From assembly GCF_006345805.1 (NCBI RefSeq), contig NC_043002.1:92132001-92196000 (forward strand): a stretch of 64,000 nucleotides of DNA, given 5' to 3'. Shown piece after piece: positions 8,261 through 42,427 of the stretch (position 1 is its first letter; every line of letters starts with the position of its first letter). A program made the position numbers and the translations under genes. The notes under the pieces were generated by a model, which did no database searches, was not told the DNA's origin, and was given only the letters and a program-made list of their open reading frames with translations. This stretch comes from Octopus sinensis. Its lineage: Eukaryota.

Positions 8261-8547
8261 TAACAAGCGCAATACCATGGTGTAAAAAGGAAATATATGG
8301 ATAAGTACTTAAAAGATATTGTGTCTAGAGCCAGCTAGAGACGAAGATCTCTTGGGGCTATAAAGCTACAGTAACACCCCCTCCCCAATGTGGTTAGCCA
8401 TGATAAGATGGCTTCTATACTTTACATTATCGAGCGATTACTGTTTCAATCTCATTCTGAGATTTAATTATGCTTACTGTTCGTTTTTCGACATCAGTGG
8501 CAGACGCCATTAGAAAAACTTATATCTATTTGCAAAGGAGCCTTCAC

Positions 8548-8565
8548 TTTCATCGCTACCTGGTG
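8548..8565 (+). repeat. 18-bp target-site duplication TTTCATCGCTACCTGGTG (also 14097-14114, 19598-19615, 25135-25152)
   Basis: Four exact copies, one at every element junction. Outer flanks differ: CCTTCAC on the left, GTTACCG on the right. Confidence 0.95.
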
Positions 8566-8818
8566 TTTTTTGAATTTTTCCTCGGCGTATACCAATATTT
8601 TTCTGTTGCTGCAAATCGTTGTGTGAGTTCGTTTCCGTTTGTCTACTCTGTCGTGTTACAAGTAATATCATTGTTGAACTGTTTTTGACCCAGTAATTTT
8701 CGCCCTTTGGGGTAGAAAATTTCTGTGTGCTGTTTTGTGTGAACTCTTAACCTGTATAGGTTATTTTTGGAAAAAAAAAAATTCTCTTGTCATTTGTGAC
8801 AAGTTTGTGTTGTCTAAT

Positions 8819-10330
8819 ATGGAATTAGACTTAAGTTCAAAAAAAGACTTTCCCGAGATGGGAGAAGTATAACAACTGTTAAACAAAAGGAAACACAGAC
8901 AAAACCCAGTTTTTCAGACGCCGTAGGTGGCGAAGTCGAAGAAATGGAGGTATCAATGGAAAGATTATTCAAGTTTAGATCGCTGGTGCAAAAAAGTGGC
9001 GAAGAAACACGATTGGTACCGCCCCCCGAAACTATACAAGCAATAAAGGAAAAAATGGTCACCTACAGGGTGTACAATATCAAGAAAAACGAATGACCGA
9101 CGTGAAAAACGAAATGGTCGAAAAGTGTATGGCTCCAATAGGAGTAAAGTTAGTCATGTCAACCGAGGTGCAAGAAGCGCTACAGTGGAGGCGCATTTTG
9201 AAACGGCGGAAGTAGCAAGGCAAATTTCGACACAAACGTTGAAAAACGAGAGTATAATACTGCTACCCTTATATTTAGGATGCAGAACCGCAAAAGTGAC
9301 CCTAGAAGATATACCAAGGGGCTACGACGTGATGTGGGCGGCAACAGCGGTCATTTTTGATGTTGAATCAAAATTGACAATTTTAAGTATGAAGAGAAAA
9401 ATTGCAAAACACTGGAGAGGCCAGCAGCTGGAGATGATAATCCAGGCGGAAAATGCGACGTTGGAAAGCCTACCAGACAGAGTCTTCGTGGGGGAGGGGC
9501 ACTCCATACGAGTTTCGGTGGAAGGACGCAGGCCCAGATGTTTTAAGTGCGGGCAAAAGGGCCACGTTCGCTCCGTTTGCACAAAAAAAAATAATGCGGG
9601 CAACGCCCCCCCACAAAACGCTGTGAAGAACGCAGAAAGCAGCAAAGTGGAGAAAAAAGTAACGGCTGGCGAAAACAAGGAGGAAAAAATAAACAGGTCG
9701 AACTCCAAAAAGGAGGAAGACAAGAACGAAATGCAAAATGAGAAAGGAAAGGATGAGGAAAATAATGCAACAAAAACAAATAAACAAGAAGACATGGAAT
9801 TTACGAACGTGTCCAACAAAAGGAAAAAATCCATCACCCCTGACTCCCCACCCGTATCAAAAAAAAAAACAACGCAGACGAACAAATTAAAAATATTCTC
9901 CAATCCCACCCCGGCGGTACTACACTTATAGGCCAGCACTTTAACAAACCCCACCCCCCAACTGTAAAAGGGTTTAAACCCAACGAAAAAATTATTGCAT
10001 ACACCACAAAGAACGTGAGAGTAGAAACATGGGTGAAAGCAAGTACGCTGATCAGGTGCTACAAAGCGACCGAGAAGGAAGCAGGAGGCGGAGTGGCGAT
10101 ATGGAAGGGTCGGCGAAGAAGGATGGAAAGACAAAACCTTACAAAGCCACGTAAAAGCCGGCTTCATTAAGGATGTCACCCAGGAGGTGACAACTGGGAA
10201 ATTACCCGTTAGCCCGGCAGCCACACCAACCCAGAGCCCGGTGGCAACGCCGGTGAAACACCCAGCAGCAACGGCGAGTGGGGGGGAGACAGGCAGAAAG
10301 AATCTGTCAGGCTCCCTCTCGCAACCGTGA
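8819..10330 (+). CDS. ORF1 (gag-like nucleic-acid-binding protein), copy 1, frameshifted as given
   Basis: Starts MELDLSSKKDFPEMG. Contains the CX2CX4HX4C knuckle CFKCGQKGHVRSVC followed by a K/E/N-rich linker. Ends at TGA 10328-10330. About 500 aa when the three copies are reconciled. Confidence 0.85.
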
Positions 10331-10353
10331 GTAAATAATTTTCTTTTTTCTCG

Positions 10354-13300
10354 ATGATTAAGTTAGGTTGTATAAATGTGCGTGGAATGGGATCGAAATG
10401 GAAACAGGCTTGTTTTCGTGACGACCTCATTTCACATAGAATCGAATCGAGTAGCTATTGTTACCGAGTCCAAGATGAAGGGACCCCAAGCGTTCTCACC
10501 ACTTCTCAATGGTTACGAGAAATTTATTTCTCCTAGCCGAGGGGGAGGTGCAGGCGTGGCAGTTCTTTTCAGGAAGAACTTGGACTTACAGGTAAGTACT
10601 GTCTTTTTGGACCCAGAAGGTAGGCTGGTTGTCCTAGATGTGACGCACGTGAGTAAGCAGTCCTTCAGGTTGGTGGCTGTCTACGCTCCTAACGGACGTG
10701 GGCAGACCGGTTTTTATCGGGAACTGGAGCACTTTCTAGTGACGTCCAAAACGGTAGTCTTGGTAGGGGATTTCAACACCATTCTCGATGCGCGGGTGGA
10801 TGGTGTAGGCTCGAGCGATAGGAAGGGGAATCCTGGCCTCAAGGCTCTACTAGCGAGCTTTAATCTAGTAGACCGTTTTCGACTGGATGAGCCGAACGTT
10901 CCACAGTGGACGTGGAGTAATAACGACGGCTCACTCAGATCGTACATAGATAGAGTATTTGTTAAGGAACGAGATAGGAATAGTGTTAGCTGTCCACAAT
11001 TCTCTGTTGTGCCTTACACGGATCACAAACTTGTAACGTGTGAGGTACATGTAGATAAATGCCATAGACAAGGTCCCGGGTACTGGAAGATGAACAAGTC
11101 TATTTTGACCTGTGAAGCTTTCCGTACCCGGATTAAGGAATTAGTACAGAGGGCATTATGTGGCACCATCATTAATAATAGATGGTGGCTCGCCCTCAAA
11201 AGAGCCATCCGTTTGGAGTCCATTAGATTTAGCAAGCAGCTAAGTTTAGATAGGACTAGAATAGAGGGCGAATTAGTTAAGAACTTAGACGAGGCTATGG
11301 AATCTGGCTGTGCATCCGGAGTGTTGGCAGCGAGAGCGGTATTGTACCGTCACCTCAACGCCAAGCACGAGGGGTGTAGAGTCAGAGCTAAGTTACGTGC
11401 AGGAAAACGAGAAGGTATTAACGTTGCCGGATGGGCCCGTCGTGAGGAGAGTCAGAAGGGCAAAAAGTCCTGTATTATGTCCTTAACTGACGAGCAGGAC
11501 CGCAAGATCTATGGACAGGAGGAGATGCAGAAGGTCCTTCACCAGCATTTCGCACGGCTGTTTGGGGGCGGTGGCCCGCTCGAGCGTGGGGAGACCTTAA
11601 AGGACTTCCTAGCTGGTGGGCCTCGGCTCTCGGCAGGTGAGGCGGAGTGCTGTGAAGGATCGATCTCTCCCGCAGAGGTAAGAGGGGTTATGGCCGAGTG
11701 CGCGGGGAAAAGTCACCGGGATTGGATGGTCTACCCTATGAATTTTATTGTTGTATGCCGGACTTGTTCGGGGACATACTGGCAAGCGTCTATGCAAACT
11801 GGCAACAGAATGGGAGGATTCCCAGCTCTGTGAGTCGGGGAGTTGTGACGCTGGTCCAGAAAGACCCGAGCAAGGGGGACAGTATTAGTAATTACAGGCC
11901 CATAACTCTACTTAATGTAGAGTTTAAGATTTTGGCCAAGGTGTTAGCAAAAAGGTTGACGGCTGTCGTGAAGAAACTTGTCGGGAAGGCACAGACATGT
12001 GCAATCCCAGGCAGGTCGATCCAGGATAATCTTCACCTTCTCCGCTACACTATAGATAGGGTCGGGAAATTAGACGGCAAAGGAGGGGCATTGGTCCATT
12101 TAGACCAAAGTAAAGCGTTTGATAGGGTGGACCATCGGTACTTGGCGGCGGTTCTCGAAGCGGCTGGGCTGGGCCCTGGCTTCTGCGGGTGGATCTCAGC
12201 TATGTACAGCGGCATCAAGTCCACAGTCCAGATAAACGGTTACCTAACGGAGCCGTTTTCGATCAAGCGTTCAGTTCGACAAGGGTGCCCCTTGTCCCCG
12301 CTCCTGTATGTTTTGGCTCTTGAGCCATTGCTGCGGAAGCTGGAGAAGTTGGGAGGCAACCCTAATGAAATCGGATGCGGTAAGTCTGTTTCTGCCTATG
12401 CGGATGACGTCACCCTCATCGTGTCCAACGGAACACAGCTACCTCGGGTAGTAGGTGCTCTCCATAGATACGAAGCGGTGGCAGGGGCAAAAGTTAACAG
12501 GGACAAGTCCATCGGTTTGCGCCTCGGCACCTGGAGGAACAAGCAGATACCGTCCAGTGTTGTTGGACACTGGACGGATGGTCCTGTTAAATTGCTCGGA
12601 GTATGGTTTGGTCCAGACTCCCAGACGGAGAAGAATTGGAGCGAGGTAACGAGCAAGGTGGATGCCATAGTACGGAAGTGGTCCGGAAGGCATCTTTCCT
12701 TGAAAGGGAGGGCGGAGGTGGCACAGATGTTTATAGCCTCTGTCGTCACCTACCGCCTGACCGTCGTGCCTTGCCCCGATTCGTGGTTAAACAAGTTGGA
12801 ACGACTTCTTTTCCGCTTTTTGTGGAAAGGAGGAAAGCCACTTGTGAGACGCTCCGTGTGTTGCCAGGAACCGCTAAAGGGTGGACTGGGGATGCCTTGG
12901 CTAATGATGCGCAAGCATGCGTTGAGGCTGAGACACCTCTGGTGTTACCTGGAGGATGATAAGGTGGGAGTTCGCTGGCAGAGGAATTCTTCCCGCGACC
13001 GGCCTCTATGGAGGGATTTACACCCGGTCTCATTAAAGGACGTAAACTGACTTCATGGCAGAAGGAGTGCCGACAGGCACTCTGGCTGATCCACAAGATG
13101 GGTAAGGCCGGCAGCGGGAATACCACCTCGGTGTTCTATAAAGGGCTGGTAGGAGGAAAAAATGACGACGTCCTAGGAAGGGCTCTGGGGTTCGATGAGG
13201 ATCAACTCTCCAACCTGTTTAAGAAGACTTTCAGGCCGGGGTATTTGGATAATTACCAAAAATCCCTGACCTGGCAGTGCTATAGGAATGCATTACCTGT

Positions 13301-13745
13301 TCGCGAGAAGTTATCCAGGCACGGAATGTCAGTGCCACCGACGTGTCCAAGATGTGGGTTGGACGATGAAACCGTTCAACACGCTTTTGTACAATGTCGG
13401 GAGCTGTCAGGCTTGATAAGTTACGTGGAACACGTGTTGTCGCATCTGGGACGAGTACAGCTGTCGGCTGGATCTATGATTAAGATGATACCGCCAACTG
13501 GACTCTCAAAGGAAGGTAAGGCTTGTTTTTACTGTACGGTGGCAGTATTGAAAGAGTGTGTATGGAGAACTAGAGTGGAAGGTCTAGTGAAAGGGTCCTT
13601 TATCTCTGGCCCCGGTTTGTTAAAATACTTCGGATATCATCTGAAGAGCAAGATGGGGTTGGAGAAGAGGAGCCTGCCACAGAAAGAGTATATGGAACGT
13701 TGGAAGGATGTGATGAGAAAGGTGGGTGAGAGTAGCCCAGCTTAA
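10354..13745 (+). CDS. ORF2 (APE endonuclease - reverse transcriptase - CCHC), copy 1, frameshifted as given
   Basis: APE motifs INVRG, VYAP, GDFN, IDR, TDH. RT motifs SPGLDG, YRPITLLN, LDQSKAFDRVDH, QGCPLSP, YADD. Tx1/L1-type WSGRHLSLKGR, FLWKG, GGLG. C-terminal CPRC...H...C. Confidence 0.92.
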
Positions 13746-14369
13746 TCATCGAGGAAAGGAGGGATCGGCTGCTGGGATTTATAGGCTGCCGGGTTCAAAA
13801 TTGAAACTGGTACCTCCCATTACCTTTCACTGTACATAACTGTTTAAAATAAAGAATTAATAATAAAAAAAAAGAAATGAAAAGAAAACATACGCACTAA
13901 AAGTTCTCGTGATAAAGGCAAAAGTAAGCCAAGGTTTCGTTTCAAGGCAAAGTAAGCCAAGTTTTCGTTCAAGTGACATAAAATTTTAATTTTGTAATTT
14001 TTTAAATTTCATTCGAACTCGCATAGCATTTTTGTAACTGTTTTGTCCTGTAATGTATCCATTCTATGTTAGATCTATTGATCATAATAAAGAAAATTTC
14101 ATCGCTACCTGGTGTTTTTTGAATTTTTCCTCGGCGTATACCAATATTTTTCTGTTGCTGCAAATCGTTGTGTGAGTTCGTTTCCGTTTGTCTACTCTGT
14201 CGTGTTACAAGTAATATCATTGTTGAACTGTTTTTGACCCAGTAATTTTCGCCCTTCGGGGTGATAGAAAATTTTTGTGTGCGTTTTGTGTGAACTCTTA
14301 ACCTGTATAGGTTATTTTTGGAAAAAAAAAAATTCTCTTGTCATTTGTGACAAGTTTGTGTTGTCTAAT

Positions 14370-15878
14370 ATGGAATTAGACTTAAGTTCAAAAAAAGACT
14401 TTCCCGAGATGGGAGAAAGTATAACAACTGTTAAACAAAAGGAAACACAGACAAAACCCAGTTTTTCAGACGCCGTAGGTGGCGAAGTCGAAGAAATGGA
14501 GGTATCAATGGAAAGATTATTCAAGTTTAGATCGCTGGTGCAAAAAAGTGGTGCGAAGAAACACGATTGGTACCGCCCCCCGAAAACTACAAGCAATAAA
14601 GGAAAAAATGGTCACCTACAGGGTGTACAATATCAAGGAAAAACGAATGACCGACGTGAAAAACGAAATGGTCGAAAAGTGTATGGCTCCAATATGGAGT
14701 AAAGTTAGTCATGTCAACCGAGGTGCAAGAAGCGCTACAGTGGAGGCGCATTTTGAAACGGCGGAAGTAGCAAGGCAAATTTCGACACAAACGTTGAAAA
14801 ACGAGAGTATAATACTGCTACCCTTATATTTAGGATGCAGAACCGCAAAAGTGACCCTAGAAGATATACCAAGGGGCTACGACGTGATGTGGGCGGCAAC
14901 AGCGGTCATTTTTGATGTTGAATCAAAATTGACAATTTTAAGTATGAAGAGAAAAATTGCAAAACACTGGAGAGGCCAGCAGCTGGAGATGATAATCCAG
15001 GCGGAAAATGCGACGTTGGAAAGCCTACCAGACAGAGTCTTCGTGGGGGAGGGGCACTCCATACGAGTTTCGGTGGAAGGACGCAGGCCCAGATGTTTTA
15101 AGTGCGGGCAAAAGGGCCACGTTCGCTCCGTTTGCACAAAAAAAAATAATGCGGGCAACGCCCCCCCACAAAACGCTGTGAAGAACGCAGAAAGCAGCAA
15201 AGTGGAGAAAAAAGTAACGGCTGGCGAAAACAAGGAGGAAAAAATAAACAGGTCGAACTCCAAAAAGGAGGAAGACAAGAACGAAATGCAAAATGAGAAA
15301 GGAAAGGATGAGGAAAATAATGCAACAAAAACAAATAAACAAGAAGACATGGAATTTACGAACGTGTCCAACAAAAGGAAAAAATCCATCACCCCTGACT
15401 CCCCACCCGTATCAAAAAAAAAAACAACGCAGACGAACAAATTAAAAATATTCTCCAATCCACCCCGGCGGTACTACACTTATAGGCCAGCACTTTAACA
15501 AACCCCACCCCCCAACTGTAAAAGGGTTTAAACCCAACGAAAAAATTATTGCATACACCACAAAGAACGTGAGAGTAGAAACATGGGTGAAAGCAAGTAC
15601 GCTGATCAGTGTGCTACAAAGCGACCGAGAAGGAAGCGGAGTGGCGATATGGAAGGGTCGGCGAAGAAGGATGGAAAGACAAAACCTTACAAAGCCACGT
15701 AAAAGCCGGCTTCATTAAGGATGTCACCCAGGAGGTGACAACTGGGAAATTACCCGTTAGCCCGGCAGCCACACCAACCCAGAGCCCGGTGGCAACGCCG
15801 GTGAAACACCCAGCAGCAACGGCGAGTGGGGGGGAGACAGGCAGAAAGAATCTGTCAGGCTCCCTCTCGCAACCGTGA
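14370..15878 (+). CDS. ORF1, copy 2, frameshifted as given
   Basis: Same protein as copy 1, split over ORF-track pieces 14277-14702, 14479-15498 and 15609-15878. Confidence 0.85.
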
Positions 15879-15901
15879 GTAAATAATTTTCTTTTTTCTC
15901 G

Positions 15902-18900
15902 ATGATTAAGTTAGGTTGTATAAATGTGCGTGGAATGGGATCGAAATGGAAACAGGCTTGTTTTCGTGACGACCTCATTTCACATAGAATCGAAGTAGCT
16001 ATTGTTACCGAGTCCAAGATGAAGGGACCCCAAGCGTTCTCACCACTTCTCAATGGTTACGAGAAATTTATTTCTCCTAGCCGAGGGGGAGGTGCAGGCG
16101 TGGCAGTTCTTTTCAGGAAGAACTTGGACTTACAGGTAAGTACTGTCTTTTTGGACCCAGAAGGTAGGCTGGTTGTCCTAGATGTGACGCACGTGAGTAA
16201 GCAGTCCTTCAGGTTGGTGGCTGTCTACGCTCCTAACGGACGTGGGCAGACCGGTTTTTATCGGGAACTGGAGCACTTTCTAGTGACGTCCAAAACGGTA
16301 GTCTTGGTAGGGGATTTCAACACCATTCTCGATGCGCGGGTGGATGGTGTAGGCTCGAGCGATAGGAAGGGGAATCCTGGCCTCAAGGCTCTACTAGCGA
16401 GCTTTAATCTAGTAGACCGTTTTCGACTGGATGAGCCGAACGTTCCACAGTGGACGTGGAGTAATAACGACGGCTCACTCAGATCGTACATAGATAGAGT
16501 ATTTGTTAAGGAACGAGATAGGAATAGTGTTAGCTGTCCACAATTCTCTGTTGTGCCTTACACGGATCACAAACTTGTAACGTGTGAGGTACATGTAGAT
16601 AAATGCCATAGACAAGGTCCCGGGTACTGGAAGATGAACAAGTCTATTTTGACCTGTGAAGCTTTCCGTACCCGGATTAAGGAATTAGTACAGAGGGCAT
16701 TATGTGGCACCATCATTAATAATAGATGGTGGCTCGCCCTCAAAAGAGCCATCCGTTGGAGTCCATTAGATTTAGCAAGCAGCTAAGTTTAGATAGGACT
16801 AGAATAGAGGGCGAATTAGTTAAGAACTTAGACGAGGCTATGGAATCTGGCTGTGCATCCGGAGTGTTGGCAGCGAGAGCGGTATTGTACCGTCACCTCA
16901 ACGCCAAGCACGAGGGGTGTAGAGTCAGAGCTAAGTTACGTGCAGGAAAACGAGAAGGTATTAACGTTGCCGGATGGGCCCGTCGTGAGGAGAGTCAGAA
17001 GGGCAAAAAGTCCTGTATTATGTCCTTAACTGACGAGCAGGACCGCAAGATCTATGGACAGGAGGAGATGCAGAAGGTCCTTCACCAGCATTTCGCACGG
17101 CTGTTTGGGGGCGGTGGCCCGCTCGAGCGTGGGGAGACCTTAAAGGACTTCCTAGCTGGTGGGCCTCGGCTCTCGGCAGGTGAGGCGGAGTGCTGTGAAG
17201 GATCGATCTCCGCCCGCAGGTAAGAGGGGCTATGGCCGAGTGCGCCGGGGAAAAGTCACCGGGATTGGATGGTCTACCCTATGAATTTTATTGTTGTATG
17301 CCGGACTTGTTCGGGGACATACTGGCAAGCGTCTATGCAAACTGGCAACAGAATGGAGGATTCCCAGCTCTGTGAGTCGGGGAGTTGTGACGCTGGTCCA
17401 GAAAGACCCGAGCAAGGGGGACAGTATTAGTAATTACAGGCCCATAACTCTACTTAATGTAGAGTTTAAGATTTTGGCCAAGGTGTTAGCAAAAAGGTTG
17501 ACGGCTGTCGTGAAGAAACTTGTCGGGAAGGCACAGACATGTGCAATCCCAGGCAGGTCGATCCAGGATAATCTTCACCTTCTCCGCTACACTATAGATA
17601 GGGTCGGGAAATTAGACGGCAAAGGAGGGGCATTGGTCCATTTAGACCAAAGTAAAGCGTTTGATAGGGTGGACCATCGGTACTTGGCGGCGGTTCTCGA
17701 AGCGGCTGGGCTGGGCCCTGGCTTCTGCGGGTGGATCTCAGCTATGTACAGCGGCATCAAGTCCACAGTCCAGATAAACGGTTACCTAACGGAGCCGTTT
17801 TCGATCAAGCGTTCAGTTCGACAAGGGTGCCCCTTGTCCCCGCTCCTGTATGTTTTGGCTCTTGAGCCATTGCTGCGGAAGCTGGAGAAGTTGGGAGGCA
17901 ACCCTAATGAAATCGGATGCGGTAAGTCTGTTTCTGCCTATGCGGATGACGTCACCCTCATCGTGTCCAACGGAACACAGCTACCTCGGGTAGTAGGTGC
18001 TCTCCATAGATACGAAGCGGTGGCAGGGGCAAAAGTTAACAGGGACAAGTCCATCGGTTTGCGCCTCGGCACCTGGAGGAACAAGCAGATACCGTCCAGT
18101 GTTGTTGGACACTGGACGGATGGTCCTGTTAAATTGCTCGGAGTATGGTTTGGTCCAGACTCCCAGACGGAGAAGAATTGGAGCGAGGTAACGAGCAAGG
18201 TGGATGCCATAGTACGGAAGTGGTCCGGAAGGCATCTTTCCTTGAAAGGGAGGGCGGAGGTGGCACAGATGTTTAGACCGTCTTTCCTTACCCGTGCCTC
18301 TTTGTGGAAAAGGTGGGAAACAGTTGTGAACGAACGCTTGTGGAAGGTGTTGCGCCAGGAAACCGTGCGAACGCTAAAGGGTGGACTGGGGATGCCTTGG
18401 CTAATGATGCGCAAGCATACGTTGAGGCTGAGACACCTCTGGTGTTACCTGGAGGATGATAAGGTGTGGAGTTCGCTGGCAGAGGAATTCTTCCCGCGAC
18501 CGGCCTCTATGGAGGGATTTACACCCGGTCTCATTAAAGGACGTAAACTGACTTCATGGCAGAAGGAGTGCCGACAGGCACTCTGGCTGATCCACAAGAT
18601 GGGTAAGGCCGGCAGCGGGAATACCACCTCGGTGTTCTATAAAGGGCTGGTAGGAGGAAAAAATGACGACGTCCTAGGAAGGGCTCTGGGGTTCGATGAG
18701 GATCAACTCTCCAACCTGTTTAAGAAGACTTTCAGGCCGGGGTATTTGGATAATTACCAAAAATCCCTGACCTGGCAGTGCTATAGGAATGCATTACCTG
18801 TTCGCGAGAAGTTATCCAGGCACGGAATGTCAGTGCCACCGACGTGTCCAAGATGTGGGTTGGACGATGAAACCGTTCAACACGCTTTTGTACAATGTCG

Positions 18901-19246
18901 GGAGCTGTCAGGCTTGATAAGTTACGTGGAACACGTGTTGTCGCATCTGGGACGAGTACAGCTGTCGGCTGGATCTATGATTAAGATGATACCGCCAACT
19001 GGACTCTCAAAGGAAGGTAAGGCTTGTTTTTACTGTACGGTGGCAGTATTGAAAGAGTGTGTATGGAGAACTAGAGTGGAAGGTCTAGTGAAAGGGTCCT
19101 TTATCTCTGGCCCCGGTTTGTTAAAATACTTCGGATATCATCTGAAGAGCAAGATGGGTTGGGAGAGAGAGGAGCCTGCACAGAAAGAGTATATGGAACG
19201 TTGGAAGGATGTGATGAGAAAGGTGGGTGAGAGTAGCCCAGCTTAA
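15902..19246 (+). CDS. ORF2, copy 2, frameshifted as given
   Basis: Pieces 15902-16786 (APE), 16726-17223 and 17291-19246 (RT with YADD plus CCHC). Confidence 0.92.
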
Positions 19247-19868
19247 TCATCGAGGAAAGGAGGGATCGGCTGCTGGGATTTATAGGCTGCCGGGTTCAAA
19301 ATTGAAACTGGTACCTCCCATTACCTTTCACTGTACATAACTGTTTAAAATAAAGAATTAATAATAAAAAAACAGAAATGAAAAGAAAACATACGCACTA
19401 AAAGTTCTCGTGATAAAGGCAAAAGTAAGCCAAGGTTTCGTTTCAAGGCAAAGTAAGCCAAGTTTTCGTTCAAGTGACATAAAATTTTAATTTTGTAATT
19501 TTTTAAATTTCATTCGAACTCGCATAGCATTTTTGTAACTGTTTTGTCCTGTAATGTATCCATTCTATGTTAGATCTATTGATCATAATAAAGAAAATTT
19601 CATCGCTACCTGGTGTTTTTTGAATTTTTCCTCGGCGTATACCAATATTTTTCTGTTGCTGCAAATCGTTGTGTGAGTCGTTTTCCGTTTGTCTACTCTG
19701 TCGTGTTACAAGTAATATCATTGTTGAACTGTTTTTGACCCAGTAATTTTCGCCCTTCGGGGTAGAAAATTTCTGTGTGCTGTTTTGTGTGAACTCTTAA
19801 CCTGTATAGGTTATTTTTGGAAAAAAAAAAATTCTCTTGTCATTTGTGACAAGTTTGTGTTGTCTAAT

Positions 19869-21374
19869 ATGGAATTAGACTTAAGTTCAAAAAAGACTTT
19901 CCCGAGATGGGAGAAAGTATAAACACTGTTAAAAAAAGGAAACACAGACAAAACCCAGTTTTTCAGACGCCGTAGGTGGCGAAGTCGAAGAAATGGAGGT
20001 ATCAATGGAAAGATTATTCAAGTTTAGATCGCTGGTGCAAAAAAGTGGTGAAGAAGAAACACGATTGGTACCGCCCCCCGAAACTATACAAGCAATAAAG
20101 GAAAAAATGGTCACCTACAGGTGTACAATATCAAGGAAAAACGAATGACCGACGTGAAAAACGAAATGGTCGAAAAGTGTATGGCTCCAATATGGAGTAA
20201 AGTTAGTCCTGTCAACCGAGGTGCAAGAAGCGCTACAGTGGAGGCGCATTTTGAAACGGCGGAAGTAGTAGCAAGGCAAATTTCGACACAAACGTTGAAA
20301 AACGAGAGTATAATACTGCTACCCTTATATTAGGATGCAGAACCGCAAAAGTGACCCTAGAAGATATACCAAGGGGCTACGACGTGATGTGGGCGGCAAC
20401 AGCGGTCATTTTTGATGTTGAATCAAAATTGACAATTTTAAGTATGAAGAGAAAAATTGCAAAACACTGGAGAGGCCAGCAGCTGGAGATGATAATCCAG
20501 GCGGAAAATGCGACGTTGGAAAGCCTACCAGACAGAGTCTTCGTGGGGGAGGGGCACTCCATACGAGTTTCGGTGGAAAGACGCAGGCCCAGATGTTTAA
20601 GTGCGGGCCAAAGGGGCCACGTTCGCTCCGTTTGCACAAAAAAAAATAATGCGGGCAACGCCCCCCCACAAAACGCTGTGAAGAACGCAGAAAGCAGCAA
20701 AGTGGAGAAAAAAGTAACGGCTGGCGAAAACAAGGAGGAAAAATAAACAGGTCGAACTCCAAAAAGGAGGAAGACAAGAACGAAATGCAAAAGATGAGAA
20801 AGGAAAGGATGAGGAAAATAATGCAACAAAACAAATAAACAAGAAGACATGGAATTTACGAACGTGTCCAACAAAAGGAAAAAATCCATCACCCCTGACT
20901 CCCCACCCGTATCAAAAAAAAAAACAACGCAGACGAACAAATTAAAATATTCTCCAATCCCACCCCGGCGGTACTACACTTATAGGCCAGCACTTTAACA
21001 AACCCCACCCCCCAACTGTAAAAGGGTTTAAACCCAACGAAAAAATTATTGCATAACCACAAAGAACGTGAGAGTAGAAACATGGGTGAAAGCAAGTACG
21101 CTGATCAGGTGCTACAAAGCGACCGAGAAGGAAGCGGAGTGGCGATATGGAAGGGTCGGCGAAGAAGGATGGAAAGACAAAACCTTACAAAGCCACGTAA
21201 AAGCCGGCTTCATTAAGGATGTCACCCAGGAGGTGACAACTGGGGAATTACCCGTTAGCCCGGCAGCCACACCAACCCAGAGCCCGGTGGCAACGCCGGT
21301 GAACACCCAGCAGCAACGGCGAGTGGGGGGGAGACAGGCAGAAAGAATCTGTCAGCTCCCTCTCGCAACCGTGA
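19869..21374 (+). CDS. ORF1, copy 3, frameshifted as given
   Basis: Same sequence as copies 1 and 2 with several small indels. Confidence 0.8.
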
Positions 21375-21397
21375 GTAAATAATTTTCTTTTTTCTCG

Positions 21398-24300
21398 ATG
21401 ATTAAGTTAGGTTGTATAAATGTGCGTGGAATGGGATCGAAATGGAAACAGGCTTGTTTTCGTGACGACCTCATTTCACATAGAATCGAAGTAGCTATTG
21501 TTACCGAGTCCAAGATGAAGGGACCCCAAGCGTTCTCACCACTTCTCAATGGTTACGAGAAATTTATTTCTCCTAGCCGAGGGGGAGGTGCAGGCGTGGC
21601 AGTTCTTTTAAGGAAGAACTTGGACTTACAGGTAAGTACTGTCTTTTTGGACCTAGAAGGTAGGCTGGTTGTCCTAGATGTGACGCACGTGAGTAAGCAG
21701 TCCTTCAGGTTGGTGGCTGTCTACGCTCCTAACGGACGTGGGCAGACCGGTTTTTATCGGGAACTGGAGCACTTTCTAGTGACGTCCAAAACGGTAGTCT
21801 TGGTAGGGGATTTCAACACCATTCTCGATGCGCGGGTGGATGGTGTAGGCTCGAGCGATAGGAAGGGGAATCCTGGCCTCAAGGCTCTACTAGCGAGCTT
21901 TAATCTAGTAGACCGTTTTCGACTGGATGAGCCGAACGTTCCACAGTGACGTGGAGTAATAACGACGGCTCACTCAGATCGTACATAGATAGAGTATTTG
22001 TTAAGGAACGAGATAGGAATAGTGTTAGCTGTCCACAATTCTCTGTTGTGCCTTACACGGATCACAAACTTGTAACGTGTGAGGTACATGTAGATAAATG
22101 CCATAGACAAAGGTCCCGGGTACTGGAAGATGAACAAGTCTATTTTGACCTGTGAAGCTTTCCGTACCCGGATTAAGGAATTAGTACAGAGGGCATTATG
22201 TGGCACCATCATTAATAATAGATGGTGGCTCGCCCTCAAAAGAGCCATCCGTTTGGAGTCCATTAGATTTAGCAAGCAGCTAAGTTTAGATAGGACTAGA
22301 ATAGAGGGCGAATTAGTTAAGAACTTAGACGAGGCTATGGAATCTGGCTGCTGTGCATCCGGAGTGTTGGCAGCGAGAGCGGTATTGTACCGTCACCTCA
22401 ACGCCAAGCACGAGGGGTGTAGAGTCAGAGCTAAGTTACGTGCAGGAAAACGAGAAGGTATTAACGTTGCCGGATGGGCCCGTCGTGAGGAGAGTCAGAA
22501 GGGCAAAAAGTCCTGTATTATGTCCTTAACTGACGAGTAGGACCGCAAGATCTATGGACAGGAGGAGATGCAGAAGGTCCTTCACCAGCATTTCGCACGG
22601 CTGTTTGGGGCGGTGGCCCGCTCGAGCGTGGGGAGACCTTAAAGACTTCCTAGCTGGTGGGCCTCGGCTCTCGGCAGGTGAGGCGGAGTGCTGTGAAGAT
22701 CGATCTCTCCCGCAGAGGTAAGAGGGGCTATGGCCGAGTGCGCCGGGGAAAAGTCACGGGATTGGATGGTCTACCCTATGAATTTTATTGTTGTATGCCG
22801 GACTTGTTCGGGGACATACTGGCAAGCGTCTATGCAAACTGGCAACAGAATGGGAGAATTCCCAGCTCTGTGAGTCGGGGAGTTGTGACGCTGGTCCAGA
22901 AAGACCCGAGCAAGGGGGACAGTATTAGTAATTACAGGCCCATAACTCTACTTAATGTAGAGTTTAAGATTTTGGCCAAGGTGTTAGCAAAAGGTTGACG
23001 GCTGTCGTGAAGAAACTTGTCGGGAAGGCACAGACATGTGCAATCCCAGGCAGGTCGATCCAGGATAATCTTCACCTTCTCCGCTACACTATAGATAGGG
23101 TCGGGAAATTAGACGGCAAAGGAGGGGCATTGGTCCATTTAGACCAAAGTAAAGCGTTGATAGGGTGGACCATCGGTACTTGGCGGCGGTTCTCGAAGCG
23201 GCTGGGCTGGGCCCTGGCTTCTGCGGGTGGATCTCAGCTATGTACAGCGGCATCAAGTCCACAGTCCAGATAAACGGTTACCTAACGGAGCCGTTTTCGA
23301 TCAAGCGTTCAGTTCGACAAGGGTGCCCCTTGTCCCCGCTCCTGTATGTTTTGGCTCTTGAGCCATTGCTGCGGAAGCTGGAGAAGTTGGGAGGCAAACC
23401 TAATGAAATCGGATGCGGTAAGTCTGTTTCTGCCTATGCGGATGACGTCACCCTCATCGTGTCCAACGGAACACAGCTACCTCGGGTAGTAGGTGCTCTC
23501 CATAGATACGAAGCGGTGGCAGGGGCAAAAGTTAACAGGGACAAGTCCATCGGTTTGCGCCTCGGCACCTGGAGGAACAAGCAGATACCGTCCAGTGTTG
23601 TTGGACACTGGACGGATGGTCCTGTTAAATTGCTCGGAGTATGGTTTGGTCCAGACTCCCAGACGGAGAAGAATTGGAGCGAGGTAACGAGCAAGGTGGA
23701 TGCCATAGTACGGAAGTGGTCCGGAAGGCATCTTTCCTTGAAAGGGGAGGCGGAGGTGGCACAGATTGTTTAGCCTCTGTCGTCACCTACCGCCTGACCG
23801 TCGTGCCTTGCCCCGATTCGTGGTTAAACAAGTTGGAACGACTTCTTTTCCGCTTTTTGTGGAAAGGAGGAAAGCCACTTGTGAGACGCTCCGTGTGTTG
23901 CCAGGAACCGCTAAAGGGTGGACTGGGGATGCCTTGGCTAATGATGCGCAAGCATACGTTGAGGCTGAGACACCTCTGGTGTTACCTGGAGGATGATAAG
24001 GTGTGGAGTTCGCTGGCAGAGGAATTCTTCCCGCGACCGGCCTCTATGGAGGGATTTACACCCGGTCTCATTAAAGGACGTAAACTGACTTCATGGCAGA
24101 AGGAGTGCCGACAGGCACTCTGGCTGATCCACAAGATGGGTAAGGCCGGCAGCGGGAATACCACCTCGGTGTTCTATAAAGGGCTGGTAGGAGGAAAAAA
24201 TGACGACGTCCTAGGAAGGGCTCTGGGGTTCGATGAGGATCAACTCTCCACCTGTTTAAGAAGACTTTCAGGCCGGGGTATTTGGATAATTACCAAAAAT

Positions 24301-24783
24301 CCCTGACCTGGCAGTGCTATAGGAATGCATTACCTGTTCGCGAGAAGTTATCCAGGCACGGAATGTCAGTGCCACCGACGTGTCCAAGATGTGGGTTGGA
24401 CGATGAAACCGTTCAACACGCTTTTGTACAATGTCGGGAGCTGTCAGGCTTGATAAGTTACGTGGAACACGTGTTGTCGCATCTGGGACGAGTACAGCTG
24501 TCGGCTGGATCTATGATTAAGATGATACCGCCAACTGGACTCTCAAAGGAAGGTAAGGCTTGTTTTTACTGTACGGTGGCAGTATTGAAAGAGTGTGTAT
24601 GGGAACTAGAGTGGAAGGTCTAGTGAAAGGGTCCTTTATCTCTGGCCCCGGTTTGTTAAAATACTTCGGATATCATCTGAAGAGCAAGATGGGGTTGGAG
24701 AAGAGGAGCCTGCCACAGAAAGAGAGTATATGGAACGTTGGAAGGATGTGATGAGAAAGGTGGGTGAGAGTAGCCCAGCTTAA
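21398..24783 (+). CDS. ORF2, copy 3, multiply frameshifted, CAG>TAG at 22538-22540
   Basis: APE, RT (YADD) and CCHC motifs spread over several ORF-track fragments. Confidence 0.85.
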
Positions 24784-25157
24784 TCATCGAGGAAAGGAGG
24801 GATCGGCTGCTGGGATTTATAGGCTGCCGGGTTCAAAATTGAAACTGGTACCTCCCATTACCTTTCACTGTACATAACTGTTTAAAATAAAGAATTAATA
24901 ATAAAAAAACAGAAATGAAAAGAAAACATACGCACTAAAAGTTCTCGTGATAAAGGCAAAAGTAAGCCAAGGTTTCGTTTCAAGGCAAAGTAAGCCAAGT
25001 TTTCGTTCAAGTGACATAAAATTTTAATTTTGTAATTTTTTAAATTTCATTCGAACTCGCATAGCATTTTTGTAACTGTTTTGTCCTGTAATGTATCCAT
25101 TCTATGTTAGATCTATTGATCATAATAAAGAAAATTTCATCGCTACCTGGTGGTTAC

Positions 25158-25200
25158 CGCCCGTTGACGAGGGACAACAATCCCGAAACTAGTTCGAGCG
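25158..25200 (+). ncRNA. Minimal type I hammerhead ribozyme motif (U3 variant)
   Basis: CGCCCG | UUGACGA | GGGA-caacaa-UCCC | GAAA | C-UA-G | UU^ | CGAGCG. Stem I has 5 of 6 pairs, stem II 4 bp, stem III is palindromic and minimal. Predicted cut after 25194. Confidence 0.75.
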
Positions 25201-25879
25201 TATCACTCAGGCTTGCGAGGAAGGGATGGCCTCCCTTTGCAAATACTCCAAGGACACAGATATTGTGTCTAGAGCCAGCTAGAGACGAAGATCTCTTGGG
25301 GCTATAAAGCTACAGTAACACCCCCTCCCCAATGTGGTTAGCCATGATAAGATGGCTTCTATACATTACATTATCGAGCGATTACTGTTTCAATCTCATT
25401 CTGAGATTTAATTAGACTTAAAATGCCTTCTCATTAATAAAGAGATGGTAGTGAAAAATAAGTCGCTAATATTTGGGGGGGGGAGTATGCCGGTGAGCTG
25501 GCAGAATCGTTAGCACACTGGCAAAATGCTTAGCGGCGTTTCGTTCGTCTTGCCCTTCTGTGTTCGAATTCCGCTAAACTCAACTTTGTTTTTCATCTTT
25601 TTATGGTCGATGAAATAAGTACCTATTGAACCGTGAGGTCGATGAAGTCGACTTACTCCGCTGGCCCTAAATTGCTGACCTTGAGCCAAAATTTGGAACC
25701 AATATTTTGAGGGAGGAGGCTGGTGTTTGTCATCTTGAGAAACATTGGATTAGACGATTAAATCTACTTCGGTACTTGATCGGTTCTTAAATTTATCAGC
25801 GGGATGTGAAATCTGAAAGTATGATAAGATCAAATATAAGATCTGACACGTTAACGATTCTGTTAATCTATTATGGAAT

Positions 25880-34319: not shown

Positions 34320-34402
34320 TAGCACGAGTGGGGTTCGAACCCACGCGGACAATCGTTCATTGGAACTTAAGTCCAACGCCTTAACCACTCGGCCATCGTG
34401 CT
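34320..34402 (-). tRNA. tRNA-Leu(TAA), two substitutions in the variable arm
   Basis: Identical to 42345-42427 except for variable arm TGAACGATTGTCCG. Confidence 0.8.
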
Positions 34403-37677: not shown

Positions 37678-37760
37678 TAGCAAGAGCGGGGTTCGAACAC
37701 ACGCGTACAACTATCCATAAGAACTTGAGTTTAACGCCTTAACTACTCGGCCATCGCGCT
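37678..37760 (-). pseudogene. tRNA-Leu pseudogene
   Basis: Colinear with the tRNA-Leu(TAA) but with many stem-breaking changes; anticodon reads CAA. Confidence 0.8.
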
Positions 37761-40544: not shown

Positions 40545-40627
40545 TAGCACGAATTGCGTTCGAACCCACGCGGACAATTGTCCATTGGAACTTAAGCCCA
40601 AAGCCTTAACCACTCGGCCACCGTGCT
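40545..40627 (-). pseudogene. tRNA-Leu(TAA) pseudogene
   Basis: Colinear copy with a disrupted T stem (GTGGGTTCGAACGCAAT). Confidence 0.8.
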
Positions 40628-40899: not shown

Positions 40900-40972
40900 A
40901 CAATGATGGCAGAGTGGTTAAGGCGTTGAAATTAATGGACAATTGTCCGTCTATGTTCGAATCCTAATTATG
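40900..40972 (+). pseudogene. tRNA-Leu pseudogene fragment in the opposite orientation
   Basis: GATGGCAGAGTGGTTAAGGCGTTG...TGGACAATTGTCCG...GTTCGAATCC with a deletion in the anticodon arm. Confidence 0.7.
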
Positions 40973-41057
40973 TCTGACAATATATATATATATATATATA
41001 TTGTCAGACATAATTAGGATTCGAACATAGACGGACAATTGTCCATTAATTTCAACG

Positions 41058-41062
<5 letters not shown>
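40919..41062. repeat. Perfect 144-bp palindrome centred on (TA)10
   Basis: 40919-40980 is the exact reverse complement of 41001-41062; the centre 40981-41000 is self-complementary TA. Confidence 0.92.
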
Positions 41063-41125
<63 letters not shown>

Positions 41126-41129
<4 letters not shown>

Positions 41130-41704
41130 CATAAGAGACTAAAGCCATCTGAATATGGCTAGGGACAGGGTAGGGTGGTGGGGGTGTTACTGTTGCATTT
41201 AGCCCCAGGCGAACATCAACGTCGCCAGATAGGCTTGACACCATCACGGCGTCCTCTATCCTGCAAAGGGAGATAATTCCCCGATGAAGCGGAAACCACA
41301 CACGGACCTAGGTTTCAAGGTGTATTGCCTATCATCAACGTGTGGTAGGCCCCCGCTTCCTCGACGAACAACTCACTCTGCAGGATATTTATATATAGAT
41401 TTTCAAGCAAAATACATTTGCTGATTTCGAAAATCTGTTCGACAGCAATAATAATTCTCTAAATGAGATATAGACAGTAACTGCTCCATAACATAAGGGA
41501 CTAAAGCCATCTGAATATGGCTAGGGACAGGGCAGGGTGGTGGGGGTGTTACTGTTGCATTTAGCCCCAGGCGAACATCAACGTCGCCAGATAGGCTTGA
41601 CACCCCCACCACCCTGCCCTGTCCCTAGCCATATTCAGATGGCTTTAGTCCCTTATGTTATGGAGCAGTTACTGTCTATATCTCATTTAGAGAATTATTA
41701 TTGC

Positions 41705-41705
<1 letters not shown>
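41126..41705 (-). mobile_element. Second retrozyme-like repeat (~1.3 x 362-nt monomer) with an inverted 5' end, inserted in (TA)n
   Basis: 117-bp direct repeats at 41126-41242 and 41488-41604. 106-bp perfect inverted repeat at 41444-41549 / 41600-41705. Shares conserved blocks with the 8314-25414 element. Confidence 0.78.
41299..41344 (-). ncRNA. Minimal type I hammerhead ribozyme motif (U3 variant)
   Basis: Minus strand: CACACG | UUGAUGA | UAGG-caauaca-CCUU | GAAA | CC-UA-GG | UC^ | CGUGUG. Perfect 6-bp stem I, GUC cleavage triplet, palindromic stem III. Confidence 0.8.
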
Positions 41706-41755
<50 letters not shown>

Positions 41756-42344
41756 GTGTGTGTGTGTGTGTGGTTAGGGCATCGGACTCGCGGTCGTAGG
41801 ATCGCGGTTTCGATTCCCAGACCGGGCGTTGTGAGTGTTTATTGAGCAAAAACACCTAAATGCTCCACGAGGCTCCGGCAGGGGGTCGTGATCCCTGCTG
41901 TACTCTTTCACCACTCTTTCTCCCACTCTTTCTTCTGTTGGCCTGCTCGCTTAGCCAGCGGGGTGGCGTCACCAGCGATGTGTAACTACATCTGATGGAC
42001 TGGTCGGTCACGTGATCACGTGATATATATATATATATATAGGGGCAGGCGTGGTTCTGTGGTGAGAAGCCTATTTTGGGCTCAGTGCCACTGCGTGGCA
42101 TCATGGACAAGTGTCTAGAGGCTCGGCAAAAGAGACCGATAGAATAAATGCTAGGCTTAAAAATAAATCTTGGGGATGATTTCTTCGACTAAAACCTTTT
42201 AAAGCGGTGCTCCAGCATAGTCGCAGTCAAATGACTGAAACAAGTAAACGAGTAAAGTAGCTTCAGACACGGTTTTATAAGACATACAAATTAATAAACA
42301 CACTCAGAAATTGAAAAAAAAGAAACAAAAACACAGAAGTTTCG

Positions 42345-42427
42345 TAGCACGAGTGGGGTTCGAACCCACGCGGACAATTGTCCATTGGAACTTAAGTCCA
42401 ACGCCTTAACCACTCGGCCATCGTGCT
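42345..42427 (-). tRNA. tRNA-Leu(TAA), apparently intact
   Basis: AGCACGA/TCGTGCT acceptor stem, A box TGGCCGAGTGG, TTGGA-CT TAA GT-TCCAA anticodon arm, long variable arm, GTGGGTTCGAACCCCAC T arm, downstream T-run terminator. Confidence 0.93.

Follow-up and report, generated by a model that had tools for sequence, protein, structure and literature searches.

A 5'-truncated 362-nt hammerhead repeat of Octopus sinensis: likely a non-LTR retrozyme inserted by a Penelope-like enzyme

A 362-nt period with a hammerhead motif lies on the minus strand of the window (the whole stretch of Octopus sinensis DNA analysed, 64,000 nucleotides), raising the question of what kind of element it is and how it was inserted. 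The first-pass annotation had placed a repeat of this period at 41126..41604. The period was borne out, with positions 41604-41488 recurring at 41242-41126 (115 of 117 nucleotides identical at offset 362). The extent was right for the direct arm, but an inverted arm and the flanking TA tracts had been overlooked, and the element reaches 41705 (Table 1). The two arms overlap by 5 nt at the inversion junction, and the tail sequence found on one arm end also occurs inside the direct arm at 41487-41444. The unit has a G+C content of 0.46. As annotated before, the 18-bp target of the Tx1-like element is absent from this copy. Its target duplication is unreadable because the copy sits in a TA tract. 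The copy contains a single hammerhead rather than two in tandem, so it cannot release a ~360-nt monomer and is a dead end as a source. We consider it likely that 41126-41705 represents a protein-free hammerhead repeat, probably a non-LTR retrozyme, in a genomic copy truncated at its 5' end. A Penelope-like RT/GIY-YIG enzyme probably inserted it in trans, copying an RNA that is predicted to have been a circular monomer.

Directly adjoining the TA tract of the insertion, at 40920-41059, a degenerate tRNA-Leu-like sequence is duplicated as a perfect inverted repeat of ~61 bp around a short TA loop, which could have been produced by the insertion itself or during assembly. tRNA-Leu(TAA) genes and decayed copies cluster around the insertion (34320-34402, 37678-37760, 40545-40627, and 42344-42427).

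Table 1. Features of the 362-nt repeat copy and of its relatives in the window.
Feature	Position	Strand	Remark
Sister subfamily A (357-nt unit), upstream of Tx1-like array	8315..8565	+	ends in 18-bp duplicated target
Sister subfamily A (357-nt unit), downstream of Tx1-like array	25135..25414	+	hammerhead 25158-25200
(TA)n target tract, E1 end	41061..41125	.	
Direct arm	41126..41604	-	1.32 units (unit positions 1-362 plus 1-117); stops at short fixed end E1
One full unit, 362 nt, subfamily B	41243..41604	-	
Rod-like domain extending stem I	41257..41387	-	distal stem I, outer helix, closing helix
Type I hammerhead motif	41299..41344	-	stem I, core, stem II, stem III, GUC triplet
Predicted self-cleavage site	41304..41305	-	unit position 300/301; from hammerhead geometry
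Most conserved module	41474..41555	-	ACAGTAA/TTACTGT helix around AGCCAT hairpin, plus E1 site
Inverted arm	41600..41705	+	unit positions 56-161, 106 nt; stops at long fixed end E2
44-nt tail	41662..41705	+	unit positions 118-161; on one arm end only
(TA)n then (TATG)n tract, E2 end	41706..41771	.	

All core positions of the hammerhead are present. On the minus strand, stem I is formed by 41344-41339 and 41304-41299, followed by the core UUGAUGA at 41338-41332 (U3-U4-G5-A6-U7-G8-A9), a stem II of 3 bp at 41331-41317, and GAAAC-CUAG-GUC at 41316-41305, where stem III has 2 bp and a palindromic loop. The minus-strand UUGANGA core proposed earlier was thereby confirmed, and the cut sites predicted at 41305/41304 and, in family A, at 25194/25195 are both as stated. 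The motif departs twice from the consensus, with U3.G8 and a U10.1.U11.1 mismatch. U3.G8 lowers hammerhead activity. The Rfam scan called no hammerhead at 41299-41344 at E<=1, and the sister motif of family A at 25146-25216 reached 31.2 bits, below the gathering score of 52. The 136-nt domain around the hammerhead folds into a rod (z=-6.65; none of 200 shuffles was equally stable), and the minimum free energy (MFE) fold includes both the closing helix (41387-41379/41265-41257) and the outer helix (41359-41353/41292-41286) drawn in the first-pass annotation. The same fold mispairs the hammerhead core, the hammerhead-competent fold being 6.2 kcal/mol less stable. Stem I pairing had been described as kept between the two families of the window; this does not hold throughout, since a C.A mismatch in stem I of family A makes the comparison not fully pair-preserving.

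Genome-wide searches (2.72 Gb) yielded 1,173 candidates for the 362-nt unit, with 40 scored places 96-100% identical, and 1,661 candidates for the 357-nt unit of family A. The tail-motif pattern occurs at 2,148 places (control 1), and the core pattern retrieves 1,858 intact cores (reversed-pattern control 0). The 362-nt family is young and dispersed over many chromosomes. Together with its relatives it forms a superfamily of at least seven subfamilies among loci taken in chromosome order, which are 53-90% identical between groups, with periods of 354-362 nt and arms of up to 2.8 units. Full monomers of families A and B share 55% identity (z=20), with a local alignment score of 279 compared to 109+-8 (maximum 140) in 300 shuffles, and blastn within the window matched B to the 357-nt family with E values of 2e-11 and 6e-11. 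The homology of the two repeats claimed earlier is thus upheld, and its four colinear conserved blocks are present. No linked coding sequence was found: the periodic unit accounts for the arms in full, and beyond them lies flanking DNA. Most sampled subfamilies bear a weakening core change; those with U3-A8 and G10.1-C11.1 (D, G, and H) may not. Subfamily F, seen at two loci, combines a canonical C3-G8 core with a C.A mismatch at 10.1/11.1.

The first conserved-block pattern gave 2,807 matches, a number rejected as a retrozyme count because an unrelated ~400-bp family dominates it (15 of the 19 non-A/B loci inspected). This abundant non-autonomous family, with a 5' ATC and a 3' hairpin plus CTAG, is one that we take to be Helitron-like from its ends, and it has captured a retrozyme piece including an inverted tail bit.

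Conservation of RNA structure was assessed with an alignment of 20 diverse hammerhead domains and a hand-drawn 31-pair structure derived from these same sequences; nine of 29 candidate rows had been dropped (three mis-anchored, two with deletions, three truncated or running into a junction, and one near-duplicate). In this alignment 90% of cells are paired, compared to 30-48% in slid controls. Double changes occur in 16 of 31 pairs (reached in 1 of 500 shuffles), and the covariation score is 0.357 against 0.230 (0 of 500 shuffles; slid controls 0.04-0.19). Further pair types are not significant (331 of 500 shuffles), and the outer helix is 75.5% paired. RNAalifold on nine full units predicted 76 pairs, 20 of them with double changes. 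Six pairs of the ACAGTAA/TTACTGT helix are kept in all nine units and, being invariant, are uninformative for covariation. With positions 3 and 8 left free, a hand count of 100 cores listed among the 1,858 gave 51 U3.G8, 44 U3-A8, and 5 C3-G8, and no unpairable state; the C3-G8 rows all belong to one lineage, so independent 3/8 change events are few. Circular folds were more stable than shuffles in 11 of 12 monomers (z -2.9 to -5.9; the remaining one -1.4). The earlier suggestion of a retrozyme family selected for RNA structure gains from the covariation across subfamilies and from the 3/8 pairing, with the qualification that the shuffle controls ignore phylogeny.

How the copies were inserted can be read from their ends. 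Two samples were analyzed, 69 non-redundant loci in chromosome order (115 arms) and 58 top-hit loci. In the former, 96 of 115 arms stop at one of two fixed ends, E1 and E2, which lie 44 nt apart at positions 117 and 161 of the B unit; the homologous ends in A, at 112 and 156, are likewise 44 nt apart. The 69 loci include 43 back-to-back pairs of arms, and the 31 pairs with both ends fixed comprise 30 E1+E2, one E1+E1, and no E2+E2. All 30 such pairs in the top-hit loci are E1+E2, giving 60 of 61 over both samples, where the choice of most loci by the tail motif biases against E1+E1 and not against E2+E2. A (TA)n tract adjoins 61 of 96 fixed ends in the 69-locus sample and 66 of 88 in the top-hit sample. 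Among eight two-armed insertions outside TA tracts, the two flanks share a word of 12 nt in five cases, 10 nt in one, and 7 nt in two, and six top-hit cases share 12-17 nt. Inversion junctions are unique and mostly overlap by 0-6 nt, with one near-shared pair among 25 in B and none among 25 in A. The end rule, the inverted arms, the TA targets, and the ~12-bp duplications are the footprint of Penelope elements, whose copies have been described as carrying an inverted 5'-truncated copy and a tail of 30-40 bp on one end (Craig 2021; PMC3846280). The purified Poseidon enzyme was reported to nick and extend both strands, with two internal start sites bounding the tail (PMC11167929). That the partial multimers arose by reverse transcription had been proposed before; the arms do not begin at random on a circle but stop at two fixed sites with the Penelope tail signature. 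Based on these data, we hold with high confidence that the family is a retrozyme with Penelope-type insertion. The most conserved module (Table 1) is a candidate recognition element for the reverse transcriptase.

Potential enzyme sources are present in the genome. A profile search with PF01541 (GIY-YIG) gave 147 matches among the 150 scored of 5,029 candidates. Several families combine a reverse transcriptase with a GIY-YIG domain at the C-terminus and a Zn-finger-like motif upstream; two of the frames, of 781 aa and 775 aa, are open, and young elements of this kind have many equal-scoring copies. Judged by the Zn-finger-like motif described in Craig 2021, these EN+ PLEs appear to be Neptune-like. 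In the youngest Neptune-like family, the hammerhead is of the U3-A8 type and its stem III is palindromic, the targets are TA, the tail measures ~36 nt (44 nt in the retrozyme), and short plus long inverted pairs occur in 4 of 24 loci; the family's target duplications are unreadable because the ends lie in TA tracts. Several exchangeable 3' UTRs occur in the young family with the 781-aa frame, whose hammerhead has a UUGAUAA core, and other local Penelope families have UUGAAAA or CUGAnGA cores. Comparison of the retrozyme unit with Penelope termini by blastn and nhmmer, covering 50 GIY-YIG loci out of at least 147 matches, revealed no sequence link and no resemblance to an autonomous partner's pLTR or 3' end; only retrozyme insertions in the flanks were matched. 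Mobilization in trans is therefore inferred from the insertion anatomy. A loose likeness between the tail hairpins of the retrozyme and of Penelope was discarded, as it received no nhmmer score. Within the 64-kb window no Penelope protein match was detected, and an RT plus GIY-YIG ORF between pLTRs is absent there.

The nature of the RNA template was addressed through the variation among units. In B (33 loci), the units within an arm diverge by 1.15%, arms by 1.13%, and loci by 2.34%, and polymorphic alleles are common to all units of a locus in 52 of 55 cases. In A (38 loci), the values are 2.3% within arms, 1.9% between arms, and 3.1% between loci, with 40 of 51 alleles concordant. The 23 fully covered B loci represent 17 haplotypes. 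Within-locus differences in B are nearly all private (106 events at 99 distinct sites, five recurrent, mostly C>T or G>A). Some B haplotypes appear to be mosaics, as would result from template switching or recombination among donor RNAs, or from homoplasy. Fifty-six arms reach the predicted cut site and three stop within 5 nt of it, compared to 2.3 expected; no pile-up of 5' ends at the site was found among these arms, and this read-through rules out a cut linear monomer as the template. A monomer circle would explain the read-through, the single haplotype per insertion, and the regaining of length from short copies. Provided that the family is a retrozyme with Penelope-type insertion, the template was quite probably the predicted monomer circle. 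The circular-RNA template put forward in the first-pass annotation is accordingly compatible with the data and favored by the single haplotype per insertion and the read-through, although an uncut multimer also fits.

Uncut linear multimers from young tandem donors, mobilized in the same Penelope-type manner and with a hammerhead that is weak or serves another step, are the strongest competitor, albeit an unlikely one. The doubly atypical core and the energetic cost of the active fold are in their favor, donor loci of 2-3 units exist, and a young homogeneous donor would also yield one haplotype per insertion. The Poseidon enzyme used unprocessed RNA in vitro, where hammerhead cleavage was dispensable (PMC11167929), so read-through is no proof of a circle. 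However, the mean arm length of 266 nt falls short of one unit and two complete cut sites occur in only 2 of 96 arms, so linear donors would shrink with each round unless length were regenerated. The almost exclusively private within-locus differences, the junctions that are not inherited, and a core that stays pairable across subfamilies 53-90% identical also argue against multimers.

It is far less probable that the repeats derive from an unsampled autonomous Penelope family, as truncated copies in the form of solo or tandem fragments of its pseudo-LTRs, instead of forming an independent non-autonomous element. The repeats do share the insertion anatomy of the autonomous elements, Xenopus retrozymes are related to pLTRs (bioRxiv 10.64898/2026.07.22.740005), and the sequences compared here were 50 of at least 147 GIY-YIG matches (5,029 candidates). 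On the other hand, the arms keep a period of 354-362 nt over as many as 2.8 units; two Penelope proteins compared by tblastn with 160 loci gave three hits, all in flanks and at 31-45% identity; and local Penelope hammerheads are AT-rich with a long stem II, whereas the retrozyme motif is of canonical size. An origin at the DNA level, as a satellite or a microsatellite-associated duplication artefact whose hammerhead-like motif is due to chance, to which the long TA tracts, the adjoining perfect inverted repeat, and the missing Rfam call could point, is effectively refuted by the dispersal over many chromosomes, the fixed ends with their short/long rule, the target duplications, the covarying helices, and the intact cores counted against none in the control.

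For the favored reading, a retrozyme circle copied by a Penelope enzyme, the following course can be proposed. A rare donor locus with two hammerheads would be transcribed, weak and probably dimer-assisted cleavage would free a monomer, and a host ligase would close the circle, by analogy with coral, mussel, and axolotl retrozymes. The enzyme would bind the conserved module at about unit positions 50-161 and nick both strands of AT-rich DNA ~12 bp apart, as the observed duplication suggests. cDNA synthesis would begin internally, with each nick using one of two sites that lie 44 nt apart, which corresponds to the fixed ends seen. Both cDNAs would then pass the cut site for variable lengths and join at their 5' ends, usually with the overlap of a few bases that is observed.

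A further layer concerns the LINEs associated with the superfamily. Three tandem 5.5-kb Tx1-like LINE copies lie at 8566-25134, with the 18-bp target between copies. The 5.5-kb element in family A encodes zf-CCHC, Exo_endo_phos, RVT_1, and zf-RVT domains; the domains were determined here, and the Tx1 label is that of the earlier annotation. In subfamilies A, D, E, and G, the same site is hit by at least two LINE 3'-end types. A pattern for the 3' end of the 5.5-kb element joined to the hammerhead retrieved 47 places (control 2), sorted by hand into 23 A, 14 D-like, 5 G/F-like, 3 E-like, and 2 chance junctions. The B group is absent from these 45 junctions, and it makes up about 30 of 100 listed cores as judged by stem II and loop sequence (strict B 15 of 100), giving P ~1e-7 or 7e-4, respectively, under an independence of copies that holds incompletely. 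The junction reads TTCGTCG in B in place of TTCATCG, and B also differs across the target while the pairing stays. A three-tier parasite chain is possible but doubtful: Penelope would use twin internal initiation to copy the retrozyme circles, the rod domain would serve as insertion site for a site-specific Tx1-like LINE, and B would have escaped through compensatory changes in the target that leave the helix intact. The lack of LINE junctions in B could also reflect drift, timing, or another LINE family acting on it.

PLEs have been proposed as mobilizers of retrozymes (Cervera & de la Pena 2020, PMC7229834), a proposal that has so far come from co-occurrence and terminal homology (PMC7229834; bioRxiv 10.64898/2026.07.22.740005). 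The 362-nt family provides direct support at the level of insertions, in the form of exact RT start sites predicted at unit positions 117 and 161, nicks staggered by ~12 bp, and one haplotype per two-armed insertion. It makes two points testable in vitro, namely the origin of Penelope inversions and tails and the circle as template. Since retrozymes as a class, the partner proposed for them, and the mechanism behind the tail have all been published, the family adds a well-resolved case to a system that was known. The literature searched, mostly at the level of titles and abstracts, describes no cephalopod retrozyme, no such insertion anatomy of a retrozyme, and no retrozyme-targeting Tx1; the supplements of PMC7229834 and of the bioRxiv preprints may list such families.

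Among known systems, plant-type LTR retrozymes (type III hammerhead in LTRs, 4-bp duplication) were rejected, as the motif has type I topology and the duplication is ~12 bp. Metazoan non-LTR retrozymes (PMC7229834) are alike in their type I hammerhead, a unit of 150-450 bp (350-390 in mussel), a G+C content below 50%, the lack of LTR, PBS, and PPT, duplications of more than 4 bp, and a structured predicted circle. Axolotl HHR_Amex2 has, as B does, a short stem III and U.U at the base of helix II (PMC7229834). Those retrozymes form long arrays, whereas the 362-nt family consists mostly of dispersed partial units with inverted arms; its superfamily core, with U3 and G8 or A8, is unlike theirs, and the fixed ends, tail, and TA target are undescribed in the available part of PMC7229834. 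Cleavage and circles were demonstrated in the retrozymes of PMC7229834, and the 362-nt family is known from sequence. Both U3-A8 covariation in PLE hammerheads and U10.1.U11.1 as the best-tolerated mismatch are reported, and a palindromic stem III suits dimer cleavage (PMC4209133; PMC3088659). Compared to the natural core variants in these two reports, whose available parts give no activity value for U3.G8, this state is the commonest one here among the 100 cores listed.

Li, Clavereau & Pollet 2026 (bioRxiv 10.64898/2026.07.22.740005) share with this analysis the co-occurrence with PLEs and the use of PLE machinery by retrozymes. Their evidence is co-distribution and pLTR homology in Xenopus; here it comes from the anatomy of the insertions, and pLTR homology was not detected in the 50 GIY-YIG loci compared. 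Under their rule for 'active' copies, two consecutive units with a complete hammerhead, the copy at 41126-41705 is excluded, and eight of nine Xenopus retrozyme dimers showed no cleavage in the same preprint.

EN+ PLEs such as Neptune/Naiad and Poseidon (Craig 2021; Arkhipova 2013, PMC3846280; Frangieh 2024, PMC11167929) are alike in the inverted 5'-truncated copy, the one-end tail, the AT-rich or TA targets, the two internal RT start sites, and a hammerhead upstream of the ends. Their reported target duplications are 8-10 bp compared to ~12 bp here, and the 362-nt family differs in having no ORF and a tail of 44 nt instead of 30-40. The cut site lies 178 nt upstream of the first end in the retrozyme and ~70 nt upstream in the young local Neptune-like family. 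Collectively, the 362-nt family has the sequence-level features of a putative non-LTR retrozyme and appears to behave like a non-autonomous Penelope element.
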